The translations under genes and the position numbers were made by a program. A stretch of 64,000 nucleotides of DNA from a virus (Duplodnaviria > Caudoviricetes), in the IMG/VR virus record IMGVR_UViG_2974623408_000001, positions 58,564-122,563 of that record. One strand, written 5' to 3'. The notes beneath the pieces were generated by a model. The model did no database searches. It had not been told where the DNA came from and was given only the letters and a program-made list of their open reading frames with translations. Shown here in pieces: positions 3,809 to 58,929 of this stretch (position 1 is its first letter; each line of letters starts with the position of its first letter).

Positions 3809-6072
3809 ACTCGTCCTCCTCGTGCGTTGCTGATGGCTTGCTTGATCGCTGTGGCTACACGGTTGACGTGATGCTCGACGAAATCGTTCGTGTTCGCCCG
3901 GTCCTGATCCAGATCGATCTGGACGTGTGCGGCCCCCGGAGGACACACCAGCAGATTGTTCCACTTCTGGTTCTTGGGTTCGCGTGTGATCCACACGACC
4001 GCGACGCCTGCTTGGTTCAACCGTCGCACCCATTCGGTGGCGCGTCCCTGCTCGCCTCTCATGACGAAGAAACCGTCAGTGATGACGAACAACAATCGTA
4101 CGCCGCGTCCGCCGATCAGGTTCAGCATGACATCGAGTGTACCGATACCCTGGTCGAACGACTCGTGACCCTGATGCGCAGGAATCTCGATGCGATCTGT
4201 CGGGAATTCTCCGGGACGGAGCGTGGGTACGACGACTTCACCGAAGGCGACCGTCGCAACGCGACCGTTGACCTCGTGGACCGCGCGTGAGAGCACCCAC
4301 GACAGGGTCGAGCTGAAGTGTGTTGCCCATCCCTGCGAACCGGACACGTCCGTGGCGACACCAACGGTCAACGGCGGGTTCAAATCCACCGTGGTCTTGT
4401 TGCGCTTCCACGGTTCGCTGGTCGGGATGCGACCGGTGCTTCGCTCCGCCGCACGCTGGACCGCAGCGCGTCCGCGCATACGACCCGGAGGTACGGTCGA
4501 GTTCACCTTAAACTTGTCGCGACCGATCAGCGAAAGCTTCTCCAGCTCACGCGCCAGTTTCTGAGCGATGCGCACCTCACGGGTGTTCACCTTCATTTTC
4601 TTGGCGCTGGAGTACCGCCACGATTCCTTCTCGTCCTTGAGCGTCTTGGCCATGGACACACGCGATGGTGTCGGTCCGGCCGGGTCCCAGTCGGTCTCGG
4701 CATTCGGGTCCTGGATCGCCTTACCGATCGCCTTGTCGACCGCGTCGGACAGAGCTTTGGTCCAGTCGGGTGTGCCGTAGCGTTCGCTGGACTTGACGGA
4801 CATCGGACCACCATGCTTGTCCTTGCTGTCGCCCTTACCGACACCCGCTTTGCCTTCGATCACACCACCCTTCTCATCGGTGGGATCGATCGCGATGCTC
4901 GAGATTTTACCCTCGCCGCAGGTGCAGGACTTACCCGAGCCCTCACCTTCGCCACCTTCGCCTTCGCCTTCGCCGGCTCCCTTGCCCTTGCCCTCGCCTT
5001 CTCCTTCGCCTTCCCCGTCTTCACCCTCGCCGCTTCCACCTTCACCGTGGACAGGGCATTCACCCTCGCCTTCGCCTCCGCCGCCTCCGGGACGTTCCTC
5101 CTCCGGAAACAGTTCCTTCCAGCGGTCGACGCAGTCGATGGCTTCCTTACCACCGTCGGCGTTGACGTCAGGGATGGCGACGTAGTCCTTCCAGATTTGT
5201 TTCATCGCCAGCAGCTTGGGCTTGGTCACGATGTCCTCGACCATCGACTCAACCTTGGTCAGCTCGTACGGCAACAGCGTACGGGTCTGAGCACGGCCGA
5301 GCATGAGTGTCGAGTTGAGTGCGATGGCAGCCGCGTCGATCTCACCGCCGTGTTCGCCAGCGTCCATGGCTTTGGACATGTCCGCAGCGAACCGGACAGG
5401 GTCGACGACGATCGGTAGAGCGATGCGCAGGAACCGACGTCCGCGTGCACCACCGATGCGCTTGACCTGAGTGTCCTCGCAGCGAAGCTCCTCGAACATG
5501 GTCATGATCTGTCGACCGTACCCGTCCAGCTTCTTCGTGAAGAAGTGCGACGACAGGAAGTTGGACGACAGGCTGTGACCGGTCTCGTGGATGAACACAC
5601 CGATGATCTGCAGCGCGATGAACGTCTCGAGGTCCAGGTACTCGTCGGTGCGGTACTCGTACGCCTTCCGGATACCACCCATCGACGTGTAGAACTCACC
5701 CGGCTTCTTCGAACCACCGCGTCCGAGTGAGACGCGTGTCGAGTCGTTGAGCATGTCGATGACACTGACCACACCGTCGATCACGGACTGGCTGGGGACG
5801 TACATGTCACCCTTGCGGATCGATCCGCGAGTCTTGCGAATGCGGTGCTGGTTCTCTCGGTATACCACGCCAAGGTTGATGCAGATTTTACGCGTCATCG
5901 GTGTGTACCACGCGGCCGGGTACTCTGCCCAGTTGTCCAGCGTGTGATCGATTGCGAACGCGATGACGTTCTGCGGGTCGACGAGCAGGTGGGTGTTGAC
6001 GAAATCGCCCAGCGCTCGAGACAACGCGAGCAGGTGCTTCGGTGACTCGGGGTGGAGCGTTGACATACTCAT
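3805..6072 (-). CDS. VWA/CobT-like protein with HExxH metalloprotease motif
   Basis: HETGH ... FEELRCE; Gly/Glu-rich linker; C-terminal DVSGS MIDAS motif and ITDG. Confidence 0.85.
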   Translation of the reverse strand: MSMSTLHPESPKHLLALSRALGDFVNTHLLVDPQNVIAFAIDHTLDNWAEYPAAWYTPMTRKICINLGVVYRENQHRIRKTRGSIRKGDMYVPSQSVIDGVVSVIDMLNDSTRVSLGRGGSKKPGEFYTSMGGIRKAYEYRTDEYLDLETFIALQIIGVFIHETGHSLSSNFLSSHFFTKKLDGYGRQIMTMFEELRCEDTQVKRIGGARGRRFLRIALPIVVDPVRFAADMSKAMDAGEHGGEIDAAAIALNSTLMLGRAQTRTLLPYELTKVESMVEDIVTKPKLLAMKQIWKDYVAIPDVNADGGKEAIDCVDRWKELFPEEERPGGGGGEGEGECPVHGEGGSGEGEDGEGEGEGEGKGKGAGEGEGEGGEGEGSGKSCTCGEGKISSIAIDPTDEKGGVIEGKAGVGKGDSKDKHGGPMSVKSSERYGTPDWTKALSDAVDKAIGKAIQDPNAETDWDPAGPTPSRVSMAKTLKDEKESWRYSSAKKMKVNTREVRIAQKLARELEKLSLIGRDKFKVNSTVPPGRMRGRAAVQRAAERSTGRIPTSEPWKRNKTTVDLNPPLTVGVATDVSGSQGWATHFSSTLSWVLSRAVHEVNGRVATVAFGEVVVPTLRPGEFPTDRIEIPAHQGHESFDQGIGTLDVMLNLIGGRGVRLLFVITDGFFVMRGEQGRATEWVRRLNQAGVAVVWITREPKNQKWNNLLVCPPGAAHVQIDLDQDRANTNDFVEHHVNRVATAIKQAISNARGGRV

Positions 6073-6110: not shown

Positions 6111-6794
6111 TCACTTCTTGGTGAGTGACTTGGTGATGACGTTCTTCTCGAGTTTCGAGTCGATCGTTCCGTCACCGAACGCGAAGCGGACGAGGTCGAA
6201 GATGATCGACTCGGGATCGATCTTCTCGTCGGTGATCGCGGACTTGGAGAACAGCTTGTCCAGGGCGGGGTCGACGGCCTTGGTCAGATCGCTGTACATC
6301 TTGTGGCCGAGGTCGTGGATGCCTTTCATGGCACCGCGATCCGAGTTGTCCTCGATACGTTCACGGTCCTTCTCGGCGAGCGTGATGAGTAGCGGGGTGT
6401 CGACCGGCGCGTAGATGATCTCTGTGCTGCCCTCGTGGGCGAAATTGAGACCGTTGGTGACCATGGCGATCTGCACCGCGCTCATGATCTCGCCGAATGC
6501 CTCGACGGGTGTCGCGGTCTTGAAGTCGGGTCGTCCGACGTGTCCACCGTAGGTGGAGATGCGGCCTTCCTCCGCCTTCTTGACGGTGAGGGTGGTCGAT
6601 GCGGTCGACCGCATGATCGCTGGCCCCGCTGCGGTGATCGAGAATCGGCTGACCTTGACGCGTGAACCGGACGGGTTGAGGGTGTAGTACTCGAAGTGGA
6701 ACGCGGATGCGATGGTGCTCCGGAACCGGTTGATCGCCGGGAACGAGTCGTGTTCGATCGGGAAATTGCGGATGTTGTTCGTCTTGATGGTCAT
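6111..6794 (-). CDS. Hypothetical protein
   Basis: High-GC3 ORF with its own upstream promoter. Confidence 0.7.
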   Translation of the reverse strand: MTIKTNNIRNFPIEHDSFPAINRFRSTIASAFHFEYYTLNPSGSRVKVSRFSITAAGPAIMRSTASTTLTVKKAEEGRISTYGGHVGRPDFKTATPVEAFGEIMSAVQIAMVTNGLNFAHEGSTEIIYAPVDTPLLITLAEKDRERIEDNSDRGAMKGIHDLGHKMYSDLTKAVDPALDKLFSKSAITDEKIDPESIIFDLVRFAFGDGTIDSKLEKNVITKSLTKK

Positions 6795-17249: not shown

Positions 17250-17251
17250 TG

Positions 17252-17323
17252 TGCCAAGGGAGGGACTTGAACCCCCTGCTCTCGGGCTTCAACCGAGCGC
17301 TTTACCGTATAAGCTACCAAGGC
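17252..17323 (-). tRNA. tRNA-Phe(GAA)
   Basis: Cloverleaf; anticodon arm CTCGG-TTGAAGC-CCGAG. Confidence 0.9.
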
Positions 17324-17401
17324 TTGGGCCTCATTTAACGTCTGGGCCATGGACGGTTGCTGTTGAGGCGCGACCTCAACATGGCGTCTGCAACGAGACC
17401 G

Positions 17402-17475
17402 TGCCCCTTGGAGGATTCGAACCCCCGCGGTCCTTGGGTAGAAACCAAGCGCTCTGTCCGCTGAGCTAAAAGGGC
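17402..17475 (-). tRNA. tRNA-Arg(TCT)
   Basis: Cloverleaf; CTTGG-TTTCTAC-CCAAG. Confidence 0.9.
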
Positions 17476-17634
17476 GTATGAAATTATTCGGTGTATTGCG
17501 ACTTTACGTGACCGAACTTGTCGATGTGAGCGTGGTCATGATTCTTGCGTATTGCGCAGACACGATCTTCTACAAACGTGCCCTTGCTGGTGACCAGCTT
17601 TTCTGTCCAAGTGTATCCGCATATCTCTTCCACG

Positions 17635-17706
17635 TACCCCGGGAGAATTTCGAAATCTCGACCCGCTGGTTAAAAGCCAGCTGCTCTTCCTCTGAGCTAC
17701 CGAGGC
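17635..17706 (-). tRNA. tRNA-Lys(TTT)
   Basis: Cloverleaf; GCTGG-CTTTTAA-CCAGC. Confidence 0.9.
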
Positions 17707-17819
17707 TTGTCATGAAGTCGCGCGTTATTGCTCATTTTATAGTGATGATAGCGCGTTATTGCTACACCCGTCGGCCTTCACCGAATCACCACGACAGGCC
17801 TTCACCTGTACTTCATGAG

Positions 17820-17895
17820 AGCTCCCTGTCGGACTCGAACCGACAACCTTCGCTTTACAAGAGCACTGCTCTGGTCCAAATTGAGCTAAGGGAGC
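17820..17895 (-). tRNA. tRNA-Thr(TGT)
   Basis: Cloverleaf; loop CTTGTAA. Confidence 0.9.
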
Positions 17896-17958
17896 AAGTG
17901 CGAGGTATGCTCTCGCTTGCGAGACTTCAACTCGCTTTGCCGATTTTCACGGTCCACA

Positions 17959-18023
17959 CTCGAGAGCTACCCCAGCTTCACCCACATGGTGCAGGTGACC
18001 AGTGTCGAACTGGCTTCCTCGAA
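17959..18023 (-). ncRNA. Circularly permuted tRNA-like module (T-arm, acceptor hairpin, D-like arm)
   Basis: TCGAG-GAA-GCCAG TTCGACA CTGGT-CACCTGCA CCA TGTGGGTG-AAGCTGGGGTAGCT-CTCGA. Confidence 0.6.
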
Positions 18024-18030
18024 CTTGTCG

Positions 18031-18102
18031 TACCGCATGAGAGAATCGAACTCCCGACACTCGGTGTGTAAAACCGATGTTCTTCCACTGAACTAATGCG
18101 GC
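18031..18102 (-). tRNA. tRNA-Val(TAC)
   Basis: Cloverleaf; TCGGT-TTTACAC-ACCGA. Confidence 0.92.
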
Positions 18103-18494
18103 TTGCACAGACTTACATGACGAAGACTTGCATACTTATGCGGAAATACTCTTCCACAATCACAAGTTACAGGTCCAGCTTCGACAACGATTTGAGTTCG
18201 TTTCGAAGCTGCCTCACGTTGTCTCGCTGTGCGTTTGTCACCGTGCGCAACAGTCTTTACAACGTGACAGTCATGACATCGAACAACACATTTAGCGAGC
18301 TCAGCTTCGCGACGCGCTGCTGACCAGCTCCAAATACGATGGTCGATTTTAAGACTAGGATCGACATGATCAAGCTGTAGGTTTTCAGTTGTATTGCAAT
18401 CTACGCAGACCTTGTCAGCGAACCATTCATCACGACGGCGTGCTCGCCATTCACGCTGATACTGGCGCTGTTTATCAGGGTCTTTGTAGGCCAC
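18093..18494 (-). CDS. HNH endonuclease
   Basis: CVDC..LQLDHVDP...CVVRCHDCH; stop codon lies inside tRNA-Val. Confidence 0.88.
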   Translation of the reverse strand: MAYKDPDKQRQYQREWRARRRDEWFADKVCVDCNTTENLQLDHVDPSLKIDHRIWSWSAARREAELAKCVVRCHDCHVVKTVAHGDKRTARQREAASKRTQIVVEAGPVTCDCGRVFPHKYASLRHVSLCKPH

Positions 18495-18495
18495 G

Positions 18496-18569
18496 AACGG
18501 GTGAGGAGATTCGAACTCCCACGTTCAGTTTGGAAGACTGACATGCTAACCGTTAAACATCACACCCGC
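18496..18569 (-). tRNA. tRNA-Gly(TCC)
   Basis: Cloverleaf; TCAGT-CTTCCAA-ACTGA. Confidence 0.92.
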
Positions 18570-18610
18570 ATATTCAATTGTACCAATTAAGCGCCTCCGC
18601 TAGGAGGTCG

Positions 18611-18688
18611 TACCAGCGACGGGACTCGAACCCGCGACGTACCCTCCTTGAAAGGGAGGTTGCCCCTTACCGTCAGAGCAACGCTGGC
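18611..18688 (-). tRNA. tRNA-Glu(TTC)
   Basis: Cloverleaf; CCTCC-CTTTCAA-GGAGG. Confidence 0.85.
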
Positions 18689-18689
18689 C

Positions 18690-18764
18690 TGGCACGGACG
18701 TGAGGAATCGAACCCCAGACATGTGGCTTTGGAGACCACCGTTCTACCACTGAACTACGTCCGC
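18690..18764 (-). tRNA. tRNA-Trp(CCA)
   Basis: Cloverleaf; GTGGT-CTCCAAA-GCCAC; CCA encoded. Confidence 0.92.
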
Positions 18765-18843
18765 TTGGAGCCGTTCGGTAACAGCGTCGTACGTACTGAA
18801 ACCTGGGTGGCGAGCCCTTGCACACATCGTCATGTGTGTGACG

Positions 18844-18918
18844 TACCCCGTATCGGACTTGAACCGATGACCCGCTGTTTAAGAGACAGCTGCTCTAAAC
18901 CATCTGAGCTAACGAGGC
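18844..18918 (-). tRNA. tRNA-Lys(CTT)
   Basis: Cloverleaf; GCTGT-CTCTTAA-ACAGC. Confidence 0.92.
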
Positions 18919-18942
18919 TTGGTGTATTTCGTTGTTGATACC

Positions 18943-18975
18943 ATCATGACACGGGTCGAGTAGGTTGTCAACCCC
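18943..18975 (-). promoter_or_regulatory. SigA-like promoter inside the tRNA island
   Basis: GGGG-TTGACA-17 nt-CATGAT. Confidence 0.6.
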
Positions 18976-19153
18976 TATTCAGAATTTAATCTGGCTCGTT
19001 CCTTGACGGCACCCTGACCTGTACCGAGACGTTCATCCAGCACAGCGATCTGTTCCTCGTTCGTACGCTCGGCACGTTTCTTTTGGTAGTACTCTGCGTT
19101 GGCTTGTCGGAATCTCTTAGCTGGGTCTGGCATGTAATCTCCTTGTCTAATGT

Positions 19154-19228
19154 TGGACGCCGGTGCGGGAGTCGAACCCGCCTAAACTGGTTTGCAATCA
19201 GTCACCTTTGCCGCTCGGACAACCGGCG
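19154..19228 (-). tRNA. tRNA-Cys(GCA)
   Basis: Cloverleaf; loop TTGCAAA; U73 and CCA. Confidence 0.9.
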
Positions 19229-19278
19229 TGAGGGCAGACTATTATTCTCATCCCGCCTGCCATGGGACATGTTCAATA

Positions 19279-19983
19279 TTACTGCAACGGAGTGAAGTTT
19301 ACAACACCCTGAGGTGCTGCGTCAGCCAGGATGTTTCCGATCGCTGAGAAACGACTAGGAAGCATCGCACTAGTCACCCCTATCAATCCTGCGGATGATC
19401 TGTTCGGTAACGGAGCGTCGTACACAGCGCCACCGGAGTCACCTGGTAGAACAGGTGTTGTTCCTTCGAACGGGCTACCTGTTCGCGTGACGAAACCGCA
19501 TGTCTCTCGTGAGATCTGACCGAACTTGCAGAAATGCCACAGGAATCGTGGAGCCTGACCGATTCGGTTGATCGCAACACCATTGGGTGTCTTGTTGCTG
19601 ACAGCTACCCCGTCAACGATCTCGAAGAACGCGCCGTCACGACTGATGTTCTGCGGAGACTTGGTGTAGATGTCAGGAAATCCCGTTGGCTTCGTGACGA
19701 AGTGACCCACGGTGACACCTGATACCTGTACCACGCCGTTGTCTGGGTTGTCAGCCTGGATACAATGACCCGCGGTGAGACCAAGTAGTCGTCCGCTGGC
19801 GTCGTGTCCAATTGCAGCGATGCTGCAGATTGTTCCTCCGCCGGTCAACCCACCGTCAATTTCGATACCCATTCCAGGTCGAAGTGTCGGTGGAGCAGCT
19901 GATGCCGAGGCTGGCATCAGGAAAAACAGCATACTGAATACGATTGATAGAACTACTAGGATGCGTTTCACATTAAACTCCAA
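19279..19983 (-). CDS. Secreted S1 (chymotrypsin-like) serine protease
   Basis: Signal peptide ending ASA; TAGHC, D, GDSGG catalytic triad motifs. Confidence 0.9.
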   Translation of the reverse strand: MEFNVKRILVVLSIVFSMLFFLMPASASAAPPTLRPGMGIEIDGGLTGGGTICSIAAIGHDASGRLLGLTAGHCIQADNPDNGVVQVSGVTVGHFVTKPTGFPDIYTKSPQNISRDGAFFEIVDGVAVSNKTPNGVAINRIGQAPRFLWHFCKFGQISRETCGFVTRTGSPFEGTTPVLPGDSGGAVYDAPLPNRSSAGLIGVTSAMLPSRFSAIGNILADAAPQGVVNFTPLQ

Positions 19984-20019
19984 GTGCGATAGTGAATTGC
20001 ATCACCAATCGTACACGCG

Positions 20020-20105
20020 CGGAGAAAGCAGGGGTCGAACCTGATGCCCTTTCGGGCACAGCCGGTTTAGCAAACCGGTGCTACAACCGTGTAGCTTCAT
20101 TCTCC
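20020..20105 (-). tRNA. tRNA-Ser(GCT)
   Basis: Cloverleaf with long variable arm. Confidence 0.88.
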
Positions 20106-20108
20106 AAG

Positions 20109-20189
20109 TGCTCCTGGTGGGAGTCGAACCCACAAGCCCGAAGGCTACCGATTTTAAGTCGGCTGCGTATGCCATTCCGCCACAGAAGC
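20109..20189 (-). tRNA. tRNA-Leu(TAA)
   Basis: Cloverleaf with variable arm AGCC-TTCG-GGCT. Confidence 0.92.
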
Positions 20190-20580
20190 CTTGCATCTAC
20201 GTGTCGACGGCGTTCCCGATGATGTATAGGGACGCGAGGATACCGATCACCGCGAAACACACACCGAACCAGCCCCAACCGGTGTTACTTCCTCCGTCGA
20301 GTATTGTCGAAATGTTCCACAGTAATGTTCCTGTGTTCGCCAGCAAACAAATGACTCCGAACAACAACCACATGTCAATCTCCTCTTATCTTGTCGTCAT
20401 GCTTGTCACATATCCAGTGCCAGAACGAATGATTATTCGTGTCATGCACGTCCCCATTTTCATCCATGCGTGTCTGATAACTCAGATCAAACACCTCATG
20501 TGCGATGGTGTCGATCACGCACCATGGTGACCACCATCCGCAACAGAAAAAGAAGGGAGGTGTTAACTTTGAGAGCATAT

Positions 20581-21030
20581 TCATTCAGTATCCATGTAAA
20601 GATAATGATCGCGAAGTCGACGTTCGACCTTACGAATTCTGTCGTTGGAATCGAACCATTCGACCATCGTGCCGAACGTGCATACGGCAGCAATGATCGT
20701 GAGAATCACCAGACCGAGACACATGCCAAACACGGTGTCACCTTTGTCCACCGATGCAGAATCACCGTAGCCCTCGAATCCCCACGAGATTACCGTGTAC
20801 CAGAGAAAAATCACTGTGATGGAGAAAGCAGTACTGAGTCCACTCAAACTCTTCCACAGTCGTCGGTAACGTCTCAGGTCATCCAGCTCATCCTGGATTC
20901 CCTGTTCCACGCGTGCGTTGGCGAGTGTCTTGCGTGTGTCCATGTCAAGTGCTTTCATAGGTTTCGGGGTACGCTTAAACTTCTTCTGGAGGTGTCGGAA
21001 CATCTCCTCGTCGAGGTCTTCTATACCCAT
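20581..21030 (-). CDS. Two-TM membrane protein
   Basis: Two hydrophobic segments; RBS-like AGGAAGAG. Confidence 0.6.
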   Translation of the reverse strand: MGIEDLDEEMFRHLQKKFKRTPKPMKALDMDTRKTLANARVEQGIQDELDDLRRYRRLWKSLSGLSTAFSITVIFLWYTVISWGFEGYGDSASVDKGDTVFGMCLGLVILTIIAAVCTFGTMVEWFDSNDRIRKVERRLRDHYLYMDTE

Positions 21031-21457
21031 GACTCTTCCTGTATGGTGCTTCAGGTCGGTAACCCTTACGGTACACTCTGGAGTGATCCACAGTCAATGG
21101 TACTCGGTGGTATTCTTTCCACGCACCGTAGGCGTTCGCGTCGATCTCTTCTTTGCGACCCCAGAATGTCCAGTCACCGTGCTTGCCGCAGTACTTACAA
21201 GCCCACTTGCGTTGCATGAAAAACGATGGTCGTTCCTCGAAGATTCGTTCGCCGTTCTCTTCACGAACACGGTGCGCTCTGCGGCTGACTCGCTCTTCGT
21301 GGACGAGAACCATCTCGTGGTTGCCACCCTTGTTTCGTTTGCACTTCTTGGAATCCCACCGGCGCTTGTGTTTGGCTTCCTCAGGGTCCATCTTAGCGTG
21401 TCGGAAGACCTTAGGATTTTTGTGATCCGGAAGCGTTGACGGTTCGTCCCAGCTCAT
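20975..21457 (-). CDS. Basic hypothetical protein with CxxC
   Basis: MSWDEP start preceded by AAGGAG RBS. Confidence 0.55.
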   Translation of the reverse strand: MSWDEPSTLPDHKNPKVFRHAKMDPEEAKHKRRWDSKKCKRNKGGNHEMVLVHEERVSRRAHRVREENGERIFEERPSFFMQRKWACKYCGKHGDWTFWGRKEEIDANAYGAWKEYHRVPLTVDHSRVYRKGYRPEAPYRKSHGYRRPRRGDVPTPPEEV

Positions 21458-21475
21458 GTGTACTCCTTCGTCGAG

Positions 21476-21549
21476 TAGTCCCGGTGGGATTCGAACCCAC
21501 AACATCTTCCTTTTGAGAGAAGCGCCTCTGCCGATTGGGCCACGGAACC
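21476..21549 (-). tRNA. tRNA-Leu(CAA), short variable loop
   Basis: CTTCT-CTCAAAA-GGAAG; class I architecture. Confidence 0.85.
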
Positions 21550-21619
21550 TTATAGAGACGAAAACTATTTGTATCAAACACGCGGTCGCCTCAATCGCGC
21601 TCTTCCTGCAGGAAATGTA

Positions 21620-21731
21620 GTGACGATGGTCGAGGATTTGAACCTCGGTTGAGATGAGCTGGCCAGCTGCATCTCAGTTCCCACGAACATCCACGGAGTC
21701 GAACCGCCACACGCGCCAGTGTCATCGTCAC
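21620..21731 (-). ncRNA. Non-canonical five-armed tRNA-like RNA
   Basis: 9-bp terminal stem GTGACGATG/CATCGTCAC, two TTCRA loops, two extra hairpins. Confidence 0.55.
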
Positions 21732-21733
21732 CG

Positions 21734-21816
21734 CGGAAGACGGAGGACTCGAACCCCGTGGCTTTCACACCACGCCCGCGTTCGAAACGGGCTGCGCTAC
21801 CTTACGCACGTCTTCC
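21734..21816 (-). tRNA. tRNA-Ser(CGA)
   Basis: Cloverleaf with long variable arm; G73. Confidence 0.85.
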
Positions 21817-21876
21817 TTCAGCGACCAGCTTTGTCTACGTGCCGAACCCATTAGGTACTGGTGCATGACGAACGCG

Positions 21877-21959
21877 CGGAGAATAGAGGAGTCGAACCCC
21901 CGGAATGTCTACCGTATGGCTGCGTTCAAAACAGCCTGCCCACCGTGGGCATATTCTCC
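21877..21959 (-). tRNA. tRNA-Ser(TGA)
   Basis: Cloverleaf; GCTGT-TTTGAAC-GCAGC; G73. Confidence 0.82.
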
Positions 21960-22008
21960 AGGAAAATGATCAGGCGCATACCGTAGCGCTATCCCGATCA
22001 TCGTGATG

Positions 22009-22079
22009 CTGCTCCACAAGGATTCGAACCTCGATAGCTGTATCCAAAGTACAGCGGCTTGCCATTAGCCGATGGAGCA
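22009..22079 (-). tRNA. tRNA-Gln(TTG)
   Basis: CTGTA-CTTTGGA-TACAG; U1-A72. Confidence 0.9.
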
Positions 22080-22156
22080 TGGGGTGAACGACGGGACTCG
22101 AACCCGCTAAACTCGGGATCACAACCCGAGGCTTCGACCACTTTAGCTTCGTCCAC
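22080..22156 (-). tRNA. tRNA-His(GTG)
   Basis: TCGGG-TTGTGAT-CCCGA; C73 and CCA. Confidence 0.92.
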
Positions 22157-22158
22157 AG

Positions 22159-22232
22159 TACCGCATACGGGGCTCGAACCCGTCGTCTCAAGATTGAGAA
22201 TCTTGCGTGTTAACCAACTACACTAATGCGGC
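22159..22232 (-). tRNA. tRNA-Glu(CTC)
   Basis: CAAGA-TTCTCAA-TCTTG. Confidence 0.92.
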
Positions 22233-22666
22233 TTGCTTTTCTTACGTCTCCACGTAGGAGTTTGTGCGTGACAGTTCGGACAGAGAATGCGTAGGTTCTC
22301 TAATCGATTGTCAGTGTTATCGCCATTGATGTGGTCGAGCTCTAATGGTGCTGGCTCACCGTTCCACTCAACGATACCACAACGCTCACACTTTGCTTCT
22401 TTGACACCATCTTCGATCAGTCTAGCTCTAAGGTTTTTTACAAACTTACCTTTAACGAGTGACTTCTCGATTGAACTTCGTGTCTTGTTTCCTTTGTTCC
22501 ATGATTGTCCAAGAAAATGAGTGTAGTTTATACGTTCACGATCAGCCACGATGCGAGCGTAACGCGCACGTGATTCGTGTCCTAACAATCTACCTACTTC
22601 GTTCCACGATTTCGACTGCGCAATGGCGTTGCGCAACTCGTCAAGCGTGTACGTTCTTGGCATCAT
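22223..22666 (-). CDS. HNH endonuclease
   Basis: CERC..LELDHINGDNTDNRLENLRILCPNCH; stop codon lies inside tRNA-Glu. Confidence 0.93.
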   Translation of the reverse strand: MMPRTYTLDELRNAIAQSKSWNEVGRLLGHESRARYARIVADRERINYTHFLGQSWNKGNKTRSSIEKSLVKGKFVKNLRARLIEDGVKEAKCERCGIVEWNGEPAPLELDHINGDNTDNRLENLRILCPNCHAQTPTWRRKKSKPH

Positions 22667-22670
22667 AGAG

Positions 22671-22745
22671 TGCTCCCGGAGAGATTCGAACTCGTCACTG
22701 TCACGGGCCTAAACCGTGTGCCTCTGCCAGTTGGGCTACGGAAGC
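22671..22745 (-). tRNA. tRNA-Leu(TAG), short variable loop
   Basis: CACGG-TTTAGGC-CCGTG; class I architecture. Confidence 0.85.
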
Positions 22746-22869
22746 TTGTTGGGAGTCCTCCCGAGGTCATATCCGGACCTCGGGAGGCGCTAAGTGTTGT
22801 GATACACGTTCCCAATAACGTGCGCTCATTCAAGAGCAGCATTTCCACATGACAGTCATTCACAACGAC

Positions 22870-23240
22870 AACACATTTAAGATCCACAGTCAGTTTAAAC
22901 GCGTGACTCGTTTTGCCATTAAACTATCCGGCCACGTGGAGGCCGGAGCAAGACTCGAACTTGCATGGGTCACGTAAGGTGCTGTGATCAGTCGATTTGC
23001 CATTTACTGTCGGTTGCTTGAGATTAGAGCGATAACTTCAATTTCATGTCTTGGCCGTTGCCTCTACCGTTGGGCTACCCCCGCATGTGGTGCAGGGGGC
23101 TGGATTCGAACCAGCACTGTACAGCGTTGACTCACATTGAGTTTCAATCTGAATCTCTGTGTGGCTATGGCCACACCATCCGGTGCTCAACCGGAAACTT
23201 GTGGGCAGACTATTTATGGTGCGCGGTCTGCCAGCGCGAC
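22870..23240 (-). ncRNA. Long ncRNA with two circularly permuted tRNA-like modules (22902-22974 and ~23048-23131); ends approximate
   Basis: Each module is T-arm (TTCGA), then a closed acceptor hairpin with CCA in the loop, then TA and a D-arm. Confidence 0.75.
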
Positions 23241-23244
23241 CCGA

Positions 23245-23979
23245 TCAGTCGGCGAAGACGAAGTCGACGATCTTCTCACCGACGTGCTTGTCCTCGATCT
23301 GATGCATGTTCGCTTCCTCGCGGGCGAACTTCACCGCTTCGCGGAGCTGCTCCACACGGTCGGCGTACTTCTTGACCGTGTCGGCCGGCAATGCACCGGA
23401 GAACTGAATGGTCGACCAGTAGCCGACGACGACGTCCTCGTGGAACAGCTGGACCTGTGCGGGATGCTTGTCCGTGGCCTCGGCGAGTACGTGGTTGCGT
23501 GGGACCTTCTTCGTACGAGTGGTCTCGGTGACGTCGGTCGCGTACACGCCCGTGTTGTCGTCGTAGGTCCACTTCATGGCCGGGTCGAGCTTGGGGAGCT
23601 TCGACACGAAGGTCGCGAGGTCTTCGAGCTGCTTCTCCAGGAAGAGCAGGTAGGTCACGGGAACACCGCTGGCGATGACCTCGGTACCGACCTTCACGTC
23701 GGCCTTGGCCTCGGTGTTGCCGACTTCCTTGGTGAGCACGACGTCGAACAGTCGCACGAGTGCGTCGTTCATCTCGCCGATGACCGTGTGTGCGTCCTTC
23801 TGGACGAGCGTGCGCTCCGATGGGAGCTTGTCACCGTCATCGTCCTTGGGCTTGTAGGTCCGGCTGATGCCCGACCACAGCGGCGACTTCTGGATGACGT
23901 GGTAGACGTCGGTCTTTCGGCGCTCGGTCTTGCTCTTGAGCCCCTTCTCGATCGCAACCAGCTGGTTGAGCAATGTCAT
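23245..23979 (-). CDS. Conserved coiled-coil hypothetical protein (recalled as the widespread DUF7873-like family)
   Basis: LNQLVAIEKG, GISRTYKPKDDDG, YLLFLEKQL, RTKKVPRNHV, EATDKHPAQV, VKFAREEAN; AAGGAG RBS. Confidence 0.85.
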   Translation of the reverse strand: MTLLNQLVAIEKGLKSKTERRKTDVYHVIQKSPLWSGISRTYKPKDDDGDKLPSERTLVQKDAHTVIGEMNDALVRLFDVVLTKEVGNTEAKADVKVGTEVIASGVPVTYLLFLEKQLEDLATFVSKLPKLDPAMKWTYDDNTGVYATDVTETTRTKKVPRNHVLAEATDKHPAQVQLFHEDVVVGYWSTIQFSGALPADTVKKYADRVEQLREAVKFAREEANMHQIEDKHVGEKIVDFVFAD

Positions 23980-24026
23980 GATTCTCCTTGTCTGAGTTTC
24001 AATGTGTTTCGTTGTGGTACATGTCA

Positions 24027-24055
24027 ATGATGACACACAGTGAATGTGATGTCAA
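24027..24055 (-). promoter_or_regulatory. SigA-like promoter for the 23245..23979 gene and its ncRNA
   Basis: TTGACA-17 nt-CATCAT. Confidence 0.55.
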
Positions 24056-24059
24056 CACG

Positions 24060-24134
24060 CGCTCCGAACGGGATTTGAACCCGCGATCCCTCGCTCGACA
24101 GGCGAGTGCTTTTGGCCAGCTAAGCTACCGGAGC
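24060..24134 (-). tRNA. tRNA-Asp(GTC)
   Basis: CTCGC-CTGTCGA-GCGAG; G73. Confidence 0.9.
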
Positions 24135-24167
24135 ATTGATGCGCAGGTCTTTGTAAGACCTGCAGCG

Positions 24168-24239
24168 TGGACCAGAGGGGAGTTGAACCCCCACCTAACT
24201 GCTTGCAAGGCAGCCGCTCTACCGTTAAGCTACCGGCCC
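24168..24239 (-). tRNA. tRNA-Ala(TGC)
   Basis: G3-U70 pair; loop CTTGCAA. Confidence 0.92.
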
Positions 24240-24321
24240 AGATACCTGACGAGTCTCTGTGTGTGCCGCACTATCGTCAGGGTTAGTCACTACCACGAAA
24301 GGGGTGATGGTAGTAACAACG

Positions 24322-24403
24322 TGTGCCGAACCGGAATCGAACCGATCCTGCGTGTAACGCAACGGGGTTACAGCCCGTCTGAACCACCAGGTTCTTCCGA
24401 CAC
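24322..24403 (-). tRNA. tRNA-Tyr(GTA), atypical D-arm
   Basis: ACGGG-CTGTAAC-CCCGT; variable arm TGCGT-TAC-ACGCA. Confidence 0.8.
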
Positions 24404-24405
24404 AA

Positions 24406-24889
24406 GGCGGGATACCGTTTCAGTAGGTCGTATCCCAGGTCACTACACAGTGACACACACACGAGGCTATTCCTCACCCGAGGGCTCGAAGCGTTCTGTT
24501 TCACACGCGGTCGGGGTCTTCAGTCACCTCGTACGACGCTGTTGCGTCTTGCCTGTGTGCAACTTGTTGTGAGTGTACAGGTACTCTCGCTTGGTTACAC
24601 GTGGTGGACATACACTGTCCGTTGGTGGCAGGGCTAGGCTGCGCTTGGTAGCAGCTTCACACTTACCCCTGTCGAGTGCATGTCGAGGACAATGGTCCCT
24701 TGGTCCAAGCACTAGCGATGCGTCTCCATTCGGAGCGCTGTTCGGTCCGCTCATAGCTTCACCTCCTTACGAATCGTAAGGAGCCTTAGCCTGTGTCGAT
24801 GTACTCCATGTGTCTGACCTTTCTTCCATTTGATGGACCCGCACTGCGTCTTGCTTTCATCCGGATTCAAACCGGCCATGCGGATCCCT
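24406..24889 (-). ncRNA. Large structured ncRNA candidate (ROOL/GOLLD-like)
   Basis: ~485 nt between tRNA-Pro and tRNA-Tyr, no credible ORF, several stems including GGATCCGCA/TGCGGGTCC and terminal GGGATAC/GTATCCC. Confidence 0.6.
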
Positions 24890-24890
24890 G

Positions 24891-24966
24891 TCGGGATGGA
24901 GGGATTTGAACCCCCGATATCCTGTACCCAAAACAGGTGCCTTAGTCCAAACTAGACGACATCCCG
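24891..24966 (-). tRNA. tRNA-Pro(TGG)
   Basis: CCTGT-TTTGGGT-ACAGG; C1-G72, A73. Confidence 0.92.
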
Positions 24967-25008
24967 TGGTGTGCTGCCCGTCTACCGATTAAGGCTAGGA
25001 CAGCAACG

Positions 25009-25082
25009 TGCAGATGGAAGTAATTGAAACTTCGACCTCGACTGTATCAGAGTCGCGCTCTAACCAACTGAGCTACATCTGC
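25009..25082 (-). tRNA. tRNA-Ile(GAT)
   Basis: CGACT-CTGATAC-AGTCG. Confidence 0.88.
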
Positions 25083-25591
25083 CTGCGTATGTTGCAATTA
25101 CCGCACGACAAAACCAAATTGTCAACTGCGTTGTCGCAACCGTTACCATTTAAATGATCCACAACTATCTTTCCGTGCAGCGATAAAGGCTCGCCGAATA
25201 ACCATGCGATGACGTCCCCGCACCAATAGCACTCGTGTGGTCCTTCTCCGTAATGATCGTACGCTACTTTAGTATGTTCACGTATCCAATAACCCGTAGG
25301 GTGAGCACCAGGATGCGTTCTAACTTCATAACCTACAACCATTTTGTATCCTCCAGCGTCATTCACATGTGTCGGATACGCGCATTCGTGACTACAAAAC
25401 CGAGACTTGCCACGATTCGCTGCAATCAACGTACCACATCGGTCGCAACAACGTTGGCGCGCAATTCGCTTAGCTTCTGTCCAAATTTCACGACAATCGG
25501 ACGAACAAATTGCTCGGTTGCCTTGTCGAGTAAAAGTCTTGTCACAGACTACACACTGGCGTTTCTTTCCTTCGCCACGTTTAGTTCCCAA
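25073..25591 (-). CDS. HNH endonuclease with N-terminal Cys-rich Zn modules
   Basis: CYWC..VDHLNGNGCDNAVDNLVLSCGNCN; stop codon lies inside tRNA-Ile. Confidence 0.88.
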   Translation of the reverse strand: MGTKRGEGKKRQCVVCDKTFTRQGNRAICSSDCREIWTEAKRIARQRCCDRCGTLIAANRGKSRFCSHECAYPTHVNDAGGYKMVVGYEVRTHPGAHPTGYWIREHTKVAYDHYGEGPHECYWCGDVIAWLFGEPLSLHGKIVVDHLNGNGCDNAVDNLVLSCGNCNIRRQM

Positions 25592-25608
25592 TGCTTTTAC
25601 CTTTCAAG

Positions 25609-25684
25609 TGGTGGCGGAGGTGGGATTCGAACCCACGGCCTCCAGGTTATGAGCCTGGCGAGCTACCGACTGCTCTACCCCGCA
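25609..25684 (-). tRNA. tRNA-Met(CAT), initiator-like
   Basis: 1-72 mismatch, AGCAGTCGGTAGCTCG D-arm, CAT anticodon, CCA. Confidence 0.85.
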
Positions 25685-25685
25685 G

Positions 25686-25757
25686 TGCTAATGGGTGGGA
25701 TCGAACCACCGACGACGCCCTTATGAGAGGCGCGCTCTACCACTGAGCTACACTAGC
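25686..25757 (-). tRNA. tRNA(CAT), elongator Met or Ile2
   Basis: CGCCT-CTCATAA-GGGCG. Confidence 0.88.
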
Positions 25758-25769
25758 TTATGTGTTGCG

Positions 25770-25843
25770 TGCTGGATCAAGGAATTGAACCTTGTCAGGA
25801 ACCTTATAAGAGTTCTTCCGTCATACCGTCCGGACCATCCAGC
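25770..25843 (-). tRNA. tRNA-Ile(TAT), atypical D-arm
   Basis: GAACT-CTTATAA-GGTTC; T-loop TTCAATT; A73. Confidence 0.7.
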
Positions 25844-25847
25844 AAAG

Positions 25848-25918
25848 CTACTCCACAAGGATTCGAACCTCGATTAACTGAGTCAGAGTCAGTCGTCTTG
25901 CCGTTAGACGATGGAGTA
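25848..25918 (-). tRNA. tRNA-Gln(CTG)
   Basis: ACTGA-CTCTGAC-TCAGT. Confidence 0.92.
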
Positions 25919-25992
25919 TTAAAGGAAACTGTTGAGCGAACACCAACAAGAGAAAGGAGACACCACATCAACCCTGCTCAACAGTTTCCTCG

Positions 25993-26066
25993 CACCCACG
26001 GAGAGATTCGAACTCCCGACAACACAGGTTCGTAGCCTGTTGCTCTATCCACTGAGCTACGCGGGT
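25993..26066 (-). tRNA. tRNA-Arg(ACG)
   Basis: ACAGG-CTACGAA-CCTGT. Confidence 0.92.
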
Positions 26067-26067
26067 A

Positions 26068-26596
26068 TGGTGGAGCCGAGGGGAATTGAACCCCTGTCCA
26101 AATGCTTGATCTTCATGCTTTCTACGTGCGTATCTGGTTTTAATACAACCCACCGGGTACGTGCAGGCGTGTACCTCACGGGCACATCTTAAGACCTACA
26201 TACACCAGCAAACCGGTCGGGAGGTTGTGCATTGAGTTTCACACCCCGGTCAATGCACTAACACCAAGGTAAATCCAATCTAATGCTAGCCTTAGTTAAT
26301 CCAGGATACATCGAGCGCTAGCTACCTTATATCCAGGTCCTTATCAGACTAGTGCAGCCTCGTTGGCGTAAGCCTCGATCTCTGCGATGTCTGAATCGGA
26401 AACTACAACATCAGCTTCTGCGTTTGTTGTTTAGTTGCATACGCTTTAGACCAATTGTCTGCTAGGAGTCGAACCTAACTTTTCCTGCATAAGGAACTGC
26501 TAACCATAGCTGCAGACTTGGTCACCGTGGTATCATCAACCATCACACGGGCACGCTTACAAGAGTCACTTACAGATGTCGAAACCTGTCGGCCCC
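26068..26596 (-). ncRNA. ssrA: tmRNA
   Basis: 5' GGGGCCGACAGGTTTCGAC; 3' GGGGTTCAATTCCCCTCGGCTCCACCA with G3-U70; tag ORF AEADVVVSDSDIAEIEAYANEAALV**. Confidence 0.93.
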
Positions 26597-26672
26597 TTGA
26601 GGATGAAGTTGTCAATCACGAGCGCGAGGTCCTCTAACTTCAGAGGTCCGCTACACTAAACATCAGTGTTCG

Positions 26673-26747
26673 TGGCTGGCTATGCAGGATTCGAACCTGC
26701 ACCTTACTCCTTAACAGGGAGCCGCTCTGCCGTTGAGCTAATAGCCA
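26673..26747 (-). tRNA. tRNA-Asn(GTT)
   Basis: GCTCC-CTGTTAA-GGAGT; G73 and CCA. Confidence 0.92.
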
Positions 26748-57480: not shown

Positions 57481-58929
57481 ATGACAGGAAAAGCAGAATC
57501 TGCGTCGTCGTCTGAGACAGCGTTACCCCGCAAAGGCACAGACGTCCAAATAGATGCGCCCTTGTGGGAGTGGGCTCCGCCCTTCAAAGGCACCAAGCGC
57601 TCGCACCAGTCCGCCCGGGAAAAGGCGAAGGCGACAACATGGCTAGACACCAGAGACCAGCGGTGGTGGATCAACGCCAAGCATCTCGAGGGTCTGCCGC
57701 CCAAGCGTGTACTGCGCACCAAGTTCACCTACCGCCAGTTCCTTCACTTGCTCTGGACCAGCTCTGAACTGTATGTCCATGCCCGTGTTGCTTTTGAAAC
57801 TGGGACGCCTATCACCGAACTTGACGCGTCTCGAAAAGCAGAAATTTCGTCGTTGCGCAAGCGCCTGCGTCCGGTGAGAAACTTCTCCAAGCTGGTGCTG
57901 AACGGCGGCCCTGAAGGGCAATGGCTGGGCAAAACCCTGCGCCCTGAGGATGTCCATGAGGAGGTCGTCAAGCTGCACGCGAGCGGGTCACCAGGCTTCG
58001 ACGCCATGACCGTTGCGGCATCGTCAACGGCATGGGAAATGTTCGCCGAGGACACCATCTCAGTCGAGGAATACGCCCTCCTGAAGCAGCGTAAAGACCT
58101 TCCCGGTGTCCAGACCAAGGAAGGCTACGACCTGCACCGGCTCGCGAAGCATGCCGCCCGTGCCGAGACTAGCCTGGTTAGGGCAGAACCGCACACCGTC
58201 CGTGAGTACATGCCTGACACCGGGATGTACGCCGGCGTCGGGTCTGAACTGGCCAAGAAGATCACCAACCCGCTCGAGGCGAGTGGCGTCGTCGACCCTG
58301 CCACGGGTGAGATCAAACACGTACGGTGCCAGTTCGTCTTCACCCGTGACGTCCTCGAGGCGATGGGCAGCTCGGTTGTGCACCGTGACGTCAAAGAAAA
58401 CTCACAATGCGCGAACATGGCTGTGCCTGGGACGATCAGATGTGAGATGCACGGTGGCCTGTACGCGTCACCGGATGAGACCCGCCGTCTGGTTGTGTCC
58501 AGCCAGCTGAAGATGTTCACCCTGGCCGACCAGGCTGTCGCTACGATCGCTGACATCATGATGCATGGCACAAACGAGGCCACCCGACTGCGTGCCGCTG
58601 AGACCATTCTGAACCGCTCCGGGATCACCGAGGGTAACGACTTCGAGATGCCTTCGCTCGAGGGCAAGAAACAGGGCGCCGGCGAGGATGCCACCGACAA
58701 GATCAAGCGACGCCTGCAGAAACTGGCGAGCGTCACCGATGAGGACCTGGAGCGTATCCGTGCCGAGCGTGACGAGCGTACCGCTCAGCAGCGTGCCGAC
58801 CATGAACAGCACCGTGCCCCCGGTCACGAGGTGATCGAGGGCGAGGTGGTTGAAGGGTCAGCCGAAGTGGGCCCAGATGAACGGGAGGGCGGCGATGGTA
58901 CCGCCGATCACACCGGCGATGATGAGTAG
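57481..58929 (+). CDS. Putative terminase small subunit (HGG Zn module plus C-terminal oligomerisation helix)
   Basis: RC..QC..AVPG..RCEMHGG; TRLRAAETILNRSG; long N-terminal extension. Confidence 0.5.
   Translation: MTGKAESASSSETALPRKGTDVQIDAPLWEWAPPFKGTKRSHQSAREKAKATTWLDTRDQRWWINAKHLEGLPPKRVLRTKFTYRQFLHLLWTSSELYVHARVAFETGTPITELDASRKAEISSLRKRLRPVRNFSKLVLNGGPEGQWLGKTLRPEDVHEEVVKLHASGSPGFDAMTVAASSTAWEMFAEDTISVEEYALLKQRKDLPGVQTKEGYDLHRLAKHAARAETSLVRAEPHTVREYMPDTGMYAGVGSELAKKITNPLEASGVVDPATGEIKHVRCQFVFTRDVLEAMGSSVVHRDVKENSQCANMAVPGTIRCEMHGGLYASPDETRRLVVSSQLKMFTLADQAVATIADIMMHGTNEATRLRAAETILNRSGITEGNDFEMPSLEGKKQGAGEDATDKIKRRLQKLASVTDEDLERIRAERDERTAQQRADHEQHRAPGHEVIEGEVVEGSAEVGPDEREGGDGTADHTGDDE

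Follow-up and report, generated by a model that had tools for sequence, protein, structure and literature searches.

Why should three nuclease genes of a single phage each end on the same stop codon, placed at the same position inside the next transfer RNA (tRNA) gene? This question is raised by a 64,000-nucleotide (nt) stretch of viral DNA (positions 58,564 to 122,563 of IMG/VR record IMGVR_UViG_2974623408_000001; Duplodnaviria, Caudoviricetes), which was analyzed at its full length, is referred to here as the window, and belongs to a Godonkavirus-like Gordonia phage. The window carries an array (17251-26747, minus strand, denoted "-" hereafter) of 30 tRNA genes and a transfer-messenger RNA (tmRNA) gene with a few interspersed open reading frames (ORFs), which was delineated with ARAGORN and Rfam and is colinear with, and 96% identical to, the tRNA array of the Gordonia phage Phendrix (Godonkavirus). 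Three of these ORFs encode HNH endonucleases (named here HNH1, HNH2 and HNH3), and each overlaps the next tRNA by exactly 10 nt, its TAG stop being tRNA positions 8-10 (U8-A9-G10). We consider it probable that the three represent homing endonuclease genes wedged into tRNA spacers, each having captured its stop from the next tRNA through compaction.

Three HNH genes ending inside tRNA genes

HNH1 (18093-18494, -; 133 amino acids (aa), GTG start) matches the HNH endonuclease profile phrog_4234 at 8e-33. HNH2 (22223-22666, -; 147 aa, ATG start), a relative of T5 hegA/F-TflIV, matches phrog_10822 at 2e-40 as well as the Pfam families HNH_3 (PF13392) and HNH (PF01844), both above cut-off, while HNH3 (25073-25591, -; 172 aa), whose TTG start is preceded by the Shine-Dalgarno-like motif GAAAGG, matches the HNH endonuclease profile phrog_1271 at 2e-16 and PF13392 (HNH_3) weakly, below cut-off. 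A profile match in combination with an HNH/Zn-binding core was found for all three, placing them in the HNH superfamily. An alignment of the HNH1 family displays conserved D-H...C..C..CH columns, and the N-terminus shared by this family (V/M-x-YKDP...) coincides with the GTG of HNH1.

The stop codons are supplied by tRNA-Val(tac) (18030-18102, -) for HNH1, tRNA-Glu(ctc) (22158-22232, -) for HNH2 and tRNA-Ile(gat) (25008-25082, -) for HNH3, all three called by ARAGORN and Rfam (Rfam scores of 66-70 bits). The first two are 100% identical to their Phendrix counterparts, and the third is a different allele (65% identity). TAG occupies positions 8-10 in 16 of the 30 tRNAs of the array. At their other end, the genes start 0 nt (HNH1, behind tRNA-Gly), 3 nt (HNH2, behind tRNA-Leu(tag)) and 17 nt (HNH3, behind tRNA-Met) from the 3' end of the preceding tRNA.

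The initial annotation had reported the 10-nt overlaps, the starts close behind a tRNA and a phage tmRNA in the same island, and all of these were confirmed from the ARAGORN/Rfam tRNA ends, the ORF coordinates and the Rfam match of the tmRNA. Its description of three dissimilar HNH proteins holds for HNH1, which matches neither of the others, but not entirely for HNH2 and HNH3, which share a 47-aa catalytic core with 40% identity, their likeness being limited to that core. Its wording "all three" is likewise correct for the window but does not extend to the 122.6-kb genome, where a fourth HNH gene (genome positions 18070-18723, outside the window; PF01844, 51.7 bits, 217-aa open frame) ends on its own TGA stop with the nearest tRNA more than 1.4 kb away.

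HNH1-3 are of natural length, and the tRNA contributes no more than two to three terminal residues along with the stop. In the HNH2 family, the protein ends 11-13 residues past the CPNCH motif in 63 of 79 homologues, and at least 60 IMG/VR homologues end in ...CPNCHAQTxTYRGKNKK. The C-terminus of HNH2 (...CPNCHAQTPTWRRKKS-KPH) consists of such a family-type end (...RRKKS) followed by K-P-H and the TAG from tRNA-Glu. The HNH2 homologue of the Gordonia phage Norvs ends similarly in ...TWSRKKS-NPV, and between Norvs and PhinkBoden this tail changes from NPV to NSV together with the acceptor stem of tRNA-Asn, indicating that the tail simply follows the tRNA. The last Cys of the C-terminal CxC...H...C finger of HNH1, a finger that is common to an unannotated homologue in E. 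coli phage PD114, lies two codons before the tRNA, and its K-P-H tail and TAG are read from tRNA-Val positions 1-10. In HNH3, it is the tail R-Q-M plus TAG that overlaps tRNA-Ile. The alternative that HNH2 reads through a pre-existing spacer is not favored, given that the RRKKS tail is the natural C-terminus of the family.

Filled and empty sites relative to Phendrix

Most tRNAs of the window are 100% identical to their Phendrix counterparts (per-tRNA identity table and blastn), and Phendrix lacks HNH1, HNH2 and HNH3. The corresponding empty sites consist of a 1-nt spacer between tRNA-Val and tRNA-Trp, a 14-nt spacer between tRNA-Glu(ctc) and tRNA-Leu(tag), and a 1-nt spacer between tRNA-Ile and tRNA-Met, respectively. 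In the window, each HNH gene is part of a block that has been replaced relative to Phendrix, and the sequence around these three blocks is 97-100% identical between the two phages.

Block 1 (18109-18759, -), as defined by blastn, the tRNA identity table and alignment, comprises HNH1 and the upstream tRNA-Gly, tRNA-Glu(ttc) and tRNA-Trp, which are merely 67-91% identical to the Phendrix copies and occur in a changed order. Block 2 (22259-22717, -; blastn and alignment) comprises HNH2 and the 3' 48 nt of tRNA-Leu(tag). Alignment of the latter tRNA (22670-22745, -), located just upstream of HNH2, reveals a chimera with 80% overall identity to Phendrix: its first 28 nt equal the Phendrix sequence and the other 48 nt, from the anticodon stem onward, have diverged, which points to a co-conversion or recombination junction at approximately 22718/22717. 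Block 3 (24824-25608, -; blastn) comprises HNH3 and the downstream tRNA-Ile(gat) and tRNA-Pro(tgg), whose 65% and 74% identity to Phendrix mark them as foreign alleles; no blastn match was obtained between this block and its 190-nt Phendrix counterpart.

Thus, each of the three genes is sporadically present at the same site between near-identical genomes and is accompanied by replaced flanking sequences. Since it is by this combination that free-standing homing endonuclease genes are recognized, HNH1-3 are classed as putative members of this group that were recently gained or lost. In the Phendrix annotation, each of the array's six non-HNH ORFs has a stop of its own 7-507 nt ahead of the next tRNA, which fits the overlap being a property of recently wedged-in nucleases.

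The last 14 nt of HNH1 and HNH2 are identical (GCAAGCCGCATTAG) and were considered as a shared mobile end. This was rejected, as 13 of the 14 nt (CAAGCCGCATTAG) are present at both empty Phendrix sites and therefore belong to the tRNA units, being made up of a common acceptor stem and a recurrent CAA leader. This CAA, at positions -3 to -1, precedes many tRNAs of the Gordonia phage arrays compared here, even where there is no CCA end of an upstream tRNA; it may constitute a conserved 5' leader for tRNA processing, and it contributes to the last codons of HNH1 and HNH2.

The HNH2 site of Phendrix may not be empty in the sense of never having been invaded. In a comparison of positions 6472-6498 of the Phendrix stretch with window 22233-22258, its 14-nt Leu(tag)/Glu(ctc) spacer (CGCAAGAAAGAACA) closely resembles the last codons of HNH2 (CGTAAGAAAAGCA), differing by a 1-nt indel, and these HNH2 codons (R-K-K-S) encode the natural C-terminus of the family; the spacer may thus be the deletion scar of a lost HNH gene. 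Four further tRNAs of the window, tRNA-Phe (17251-17323), tRNA-Tyr (24321-24403), tRNA-Gln(ctg) (25847-25918) and tRNA-Asn (26673-26747), are 63-89% identical to Phendrix and have no adjacent HNH gene, and among these tRNA-Phe, tRNA-Gln(ctg) and tRNA-Asn are 91-96% identical to alleles of Sixama or Mareelih. The array as a whole is a mosaic whose tRNA alleles have been swapped between Godonka-, Sixama- and Forzavirus phages.

The replaced blocks also bear on a different explanation of the overlap, according to which an HNH gene and the tRNA that it overlaps travel as one mobile unit and displace the resident allele of that tRNA, the overlap serving to make the nuclease and a resistant tRNA inseparable. 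Block 3 fits this scheme, in that HNH3 shares one block with two foreign alleles, those of the overlapped tRNA-Ile(gat) and of the tRNA-Pro that follows it. However, the tRNAs overlapped by HNH1 and HNH2 match those of Phendrix in full, the replacement having affected the upstream tRNAs instead; moreover, the HNH2 family is tied to an upstream tRNA-Leu and not to a downstream tRNA (see below). A nuclease-plus-tRNA cassette is therefore applicable to one of the three genes at best, and as a general account we consider it unlikely.

Stop positions at HNH-tRNA junctions

The initial annotation had proposed, as a test, that the TAG 8-10 frame should be enriched in other phages. For this purpose, the reachable HNH homologues located beside a downstream tRNA on the same strand were surveyed in "phages" records and IMG/VR loci, yielding 25 independent junctions with an overlap and 19 junctions at which the gene stops before the tRNA, with the three junctions of the window being additional to these. 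Stop positions are given relative to the 5' end of the tRNA, HNH1-3 being at +10. The 25 overlapping genes stop at +1, +6, +10 (six junctions), +11, +15 (six), +18, +19, +21 (two), +23, +39 (three), +52 and +135. The +10 cases are Norvs/PhinkBoden (tRNA-Asn), Sixama gp151 (tRNA-Leu), Edwardsiella phage PEi26 (tRNA-Met), S-CRM01 and two IMG/VR contigs, and three of the six stop on TGA or TAA instead of TAG. The +15 cases include Sixama gp134, PegLeg gp117 and Vibrio phage D69; the stop at +52 is that of EFDG1, and the stop at +135 that of Mareelih, where a whole tRNA-Tyr is read through. The 19 remaining genes, among them Francesca gp94 (0), Flabslab gp167 (-5) and Myrna gp144 (-10), have their own stop 0-34 nt ahead of the tRNA.

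As a null expectation, the first stop was determined in each of the three frames entering 173 tRNAs from six actinophage arrays, resulting in probabilities of 0.17 for +10, 0.07 for +15 and 0.49 for an overlap longer than 45 nt. The +10 frame was not enriched among the overlapping junctions (6 of 25, or 24%, versus 0.17; p=0.25), and among overlaps of at most 25 nt it accounted for 30% of the junctions versus 45% expected. The proposed enrichment was thus not borne out. Overlaps longer than 45 nt were strongly depleted (2 of 25 versus 0.49 expected; p=1.6e-5). The stop pattern is that of the first in-frame stop from which long overlaps have been purged, with +10 and +15 being the modal values because the region of the D-arm offers the earliest stops. 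The occurrence of +10 at all three junctions of the window has a p value of approximately 0.005 for a random frame and tRNA, approximately 0.09 given a short overlap, and 0.014-0.027 based on the frequencies in other phages, which is a mild coincidence and unremarkable for a feature picked post hoc from a very large scan.

The HNH1 and HNH2 families are characteristically located immediately 3' of a tRNA. For HNH2, 49 of 80 IMG/VR loci lie at most 60 nt downstream of a tRNA, this tRNA being tRNA-Leu(taa) in 44 of the 49. IMG/VR scans with single proteins returned no relatives of HNH1 or HNH3, and an alignment-based scan then recovered the HNH1 family, in which 24 of 80 IMG/VR loci lie at most 50 nt 3' of a tRNA and 40 of 80 are located in arrays of at least three tRNAs. 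The HNH3 family was surveyed by tblastn against the "phages" records alone, where the best matches are at most 38% identical.

These data allow the stop-capture reading to be set out as a sequence of steps. Free-standing HNH genes that are unrelated, or only distantly related, to one another would invade, or persist in, the minimal spacers of a tRNA array, with repeated entry being favored by tRNA genes acting as conserved targets. Selection would preserve the flanking tRNAs and the nuclease domains while dispensable spacer DNA is deleted, until a bare ORF lies flush between two tRNAs. Loss of the ORF's own stop, through deletion or a point change, would be tolerated if a stop in the tRNA follows within a few codons, and the ORF would then end at the first in-frame stop of the tRNA, which in one of the three frames is the near-universal U8-A9-G10. 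An IMG/VR homologue with its stop at +1, where the G of the TAG is tRNA position 1, and homologues with stops at 0 or -1 show a possible step toward a stop inside the tRNA. The empty Phendrix sites, the natural C-termini at the tRNA border and the homologue ends scattered from -34 to +135 support this reading, and the fallback suggestion of the initial annotation, namely that a gene inserted beside the 5' end of a tRNA acquires a stop that is already in place, is upheld by the same three lines of evidence.

Several considerations weigh against this conclusion. The anatomy, the presence or absence relative to Phendrix, the replaced flanks, the natural protein lengths and the stop distribution in approximately 45 other junctions were observed directly, but the nuclease activity of HNH1-3, tRNA genes as their targets and compaction as the cause are deduced from sequence; the public sequencing runs listed for this stretch comprise four DNA entries of small share and no RNA entry. 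Furthermore, the survey junctions were de-duplicated by eye, making their independence approximate, and the 5' ends called by ARAGORN may be 1-2 bases off for odd tRNAs such as the 90-nt tRNA-Ile(tat) of S-CRM01. A stop outside the tRNA is missing in 28 of the 47 tRNA-proximal HNH genes (those of the window being counted), which is uncommon among genes of bacteria and might be a product of selection and not of neutral change. Finally, three out of three genes at +10 is still somewhat unlikely under the null (p of 0.005-0.09).

The initial annotation had put a regulatory explanation first. By textbook RNase P biology, maturation of a downstream tRNA would leave an upstream RNA that ends at position -1 and has no stop, and such RNAs are substrates of tmRNA. 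A selected throttle would accordingly operate by RNase P cutting at tRNA position 1, converting the HNH message into a non-stop mRNA whose product is tagged by tmRNA, so that a potentially toxic nuclease is kept at a low level; full-length untagged nuclease would be produced only from the unprocessed precursor, and any other product would be degraded after host or phage tmRNA had tagged it. The required anatomy is present, with the stop 10 nt inside the tRNA, the same array contains a phage tmRNA approximately 500 nt upstream of HNH3, and the 28 genes without an external stop point in the same direction. Nevertheless, the comparative test of a limiter tied to U8-A9-G10 failed, given the +10 frequency reported above. 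In addition, the 19 junctions of close homologues keep their own stops ahead of the tRNA, stop positions are scattered in the manner of a first in-frame stop, the residues of the tail change along with the tRNA sequence, and tmRNAs occur in many tRNA-rich actinophages whatever their HNH layout (Mareelih, Flabslab, RobinSparkles). Homologues with and without an external stop were about equally common. The conserved or enriched stop-removing layout that would characterize a programmed non-stop gene was not observed among the homologues. The regulatory reading is thus not supported by the comparative data, and a throttle of this kind is considered improbable.

The tmRNA itself (26068-26596, -) was identified by Rfam (RF00023, 90.3 bits, matching the full model), while ARAGORN made no tmRNA call, whether on the whole window or on the region after its excision. 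With 529 nt it is longer than the tmRNAs annotated in Mareelih (approximately 400 nt) and Flabslab (approximately 435 nt). Its tag frame, as read by translation, ends in ...AEADVVVSDSDIAEIEAYANEAALV followed by two stop codons (...IEAYANEAALV), that is, in ALV and not in the usual LAA-type degron.

The predicted loss of the stop codon upon tRNA maturation plausibly applies to all 28 overlapping junctions and not to +10 alone. A broader proposal can therefore be formulated, in which HNH genes located between tRNAs of tRNA-rich phages are pared down to bare ORFs, their messages are punctuated by tRNAs with predicted ends that are set by tRNA maturation, and this trait is selected for any stop inside a tRNA irrespective of TAG 8-10; we assign it a low likelihood, equal to that of the throttle. 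Starts flush with an upstream tRNA are found in HNH1, PegLeg gp117 and Francesca gp94 (0 nt), and near-flush starts in HNH2 and PEi26 (3-4 nt). If this proposal were true, 3' processing of the upstream tRNA would generate a leaderless or near-leaderless mRNA, a type of message that is translated well by actinobacteria, and RNase P would delete the stop, with nuclease output being throttled by a race between the ribosome and tRNA processing and tmRNA clearing the losers.

The notion that the ORFs are decaying, unexpressed pseudogenes that have lost their original stops, making the overlap meaningless, may draw on the common degeneration of homing endonuclease genes after fixation, on Sixama gp151, an HNH2-like protein reduced to its C-terminal half, and on the Mareelih ORF that reads through tRNA-Tyr, but it is very improbable for HNH1-3, which are of full length, carry the N- and C-termini typical of their families and have their HNH/Zn motifs intact, and whose presence or absence relative to a 96%-identical phage, together with their replaced flanks, argues for recent mobility.

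Implications and comparison with known systems

It is well established that phage tRNA arrays harbor homing endonuclease genes; HNH1-3 add members to this group, and the coincidence of their TAG stops is within chance. What the window offers, together with Phendrix, is a clean comparison of occupied with empty sites for three different HNH genes, and thus a system in which to study tRNA-targeted homing and nuclease-driven turnover of the tRNA repertoire. The predicted loss of the stop on tRNA maturation would also provide a case of competition between translation and tRNA processing.

A practical consequence relates to annotation. For the majority of the tRNA-proximal HNH genes surveyed, the stop lies within the following tRNA, and pipelines that forbid an overlap between a coding sequence (CDS) and a tRNA truncate or drop such genes. 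HNH genes running into tRNAs are unannotated in Myrna (3935-4333), PEi26 (401-871) and PD114 (339-794; all in the numbering of the compared stretches), the HNH-like ORF of Mareelih is annotated merely as a misc_feature, and the annotated start of PegLeg gp117 (501-902 of the compared stretch) lies 21 nt downstream of the homologous GTG. These missing or misplaced annotations are probably due to rules that avoid CDS-tRNA overlap. Literature searches retrieved nothing relevant on a stop codon inside a tRNA for phage endonucleases.

Some further features of the array were recorded. tRNA-Leu(caa) (21475-21549, -) and tRNA-Leu(tag) (22670-22745, -) are only 75-76 nt in length and are devoid of the long variable arm typical of bacterial tRNA-Leu, the latter having an Rfam score of merely 40.8 bits. 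The tRNA at 20020-20106 (-) is assigned by Rfam to tRNA-Sec (RF01852, 55 bits with a cut-off of 47) and by ARAGORN to tRNA-Ser with anticodon GCT, and is most likely an ordinary long-arm tRNA-Ser. A 263-aa protein encoded within the array (23245-24036, -) is a full-length member of DUF7873 (E 3e-101), conserved as Phendrix gp144.

The known systems that offer a comparison include some in which RNA processing decides whether a stop codon exists. In mitochondria, messages are bounded by tRNAs, which act as punctuation, and the stop is completed by polyadenylation, and E. coli arfA is a programmed non-stop mRNA generated by an RNase III cut, for which regulation has been demonstrated. HNH1-3 resemble both in that processing would decide on the existence of the stop, which in their case it is predicted to delete.

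Further parallels are found in mycobacteriophages, where homologues of HNH1 (cluster M PegLeg gp117 and the gp167-type of cluster C) show 58-68% identity over the 81 N-terminal aa. The layout of HNH1 recurs in PegLeg gp117, whose GTG is flush with the 3' end of tRNA-Asp and whose stop is located inside tRNA-Glu(ctc), but this gene stops at +15 (TAA) instead of +10, and those of cluster C have their stop 5 nt ahead of the tRNA. In the tRNA arrays of mycobacteriophages and Mycobacterium, HNH genes are reported to be the most frequent CDS, and they have been implicated in tRNA repertoire diversity (PMC5966550, PMC6582537); the HNH passages of these two papers make no mention of stops inside tRNAs. 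T5 hegA (F-TflIV, AAS77121) is 36.6% identical to HNH2 over residues 4-138 and, like HNH2, is located directly behind tRNA genes, in the T5 tRNA region. Unlike HNH2, hegA is 227 aa long, includes an additional domain at the C-terminus, ends on a stop of its own and is followed by protein genes without any overlap with a tRNA.

T4 SegB is a free-standing homing endonuclease (GIY-YIG type) encoded in the T4 tRNA cluster and absent in the close relatives T2L, RB1 and RB3; it cuts within tRNA genes, drives its own preferential inheritance and co-converts neighboring tRNA genes, as described in the SegB passages of PMC2330249, in which an overlap between the gene and a tRNA, as seen for the HNH genes of the window, goes unmentioned. 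While SegB belongs to a different nuclease family and its cleavage and homing have been demonstrated, with those of HNH1-3 being predicted, the HNH genes of the window share with it a presence/absence pattern and replaced flanking tRNAs. By analogy with SegB, the meaningful link would thus be that between the nucleases and the tRNA genes that they target and replace, through homing and co-conversion, and not that between the nucleases and the TAG.

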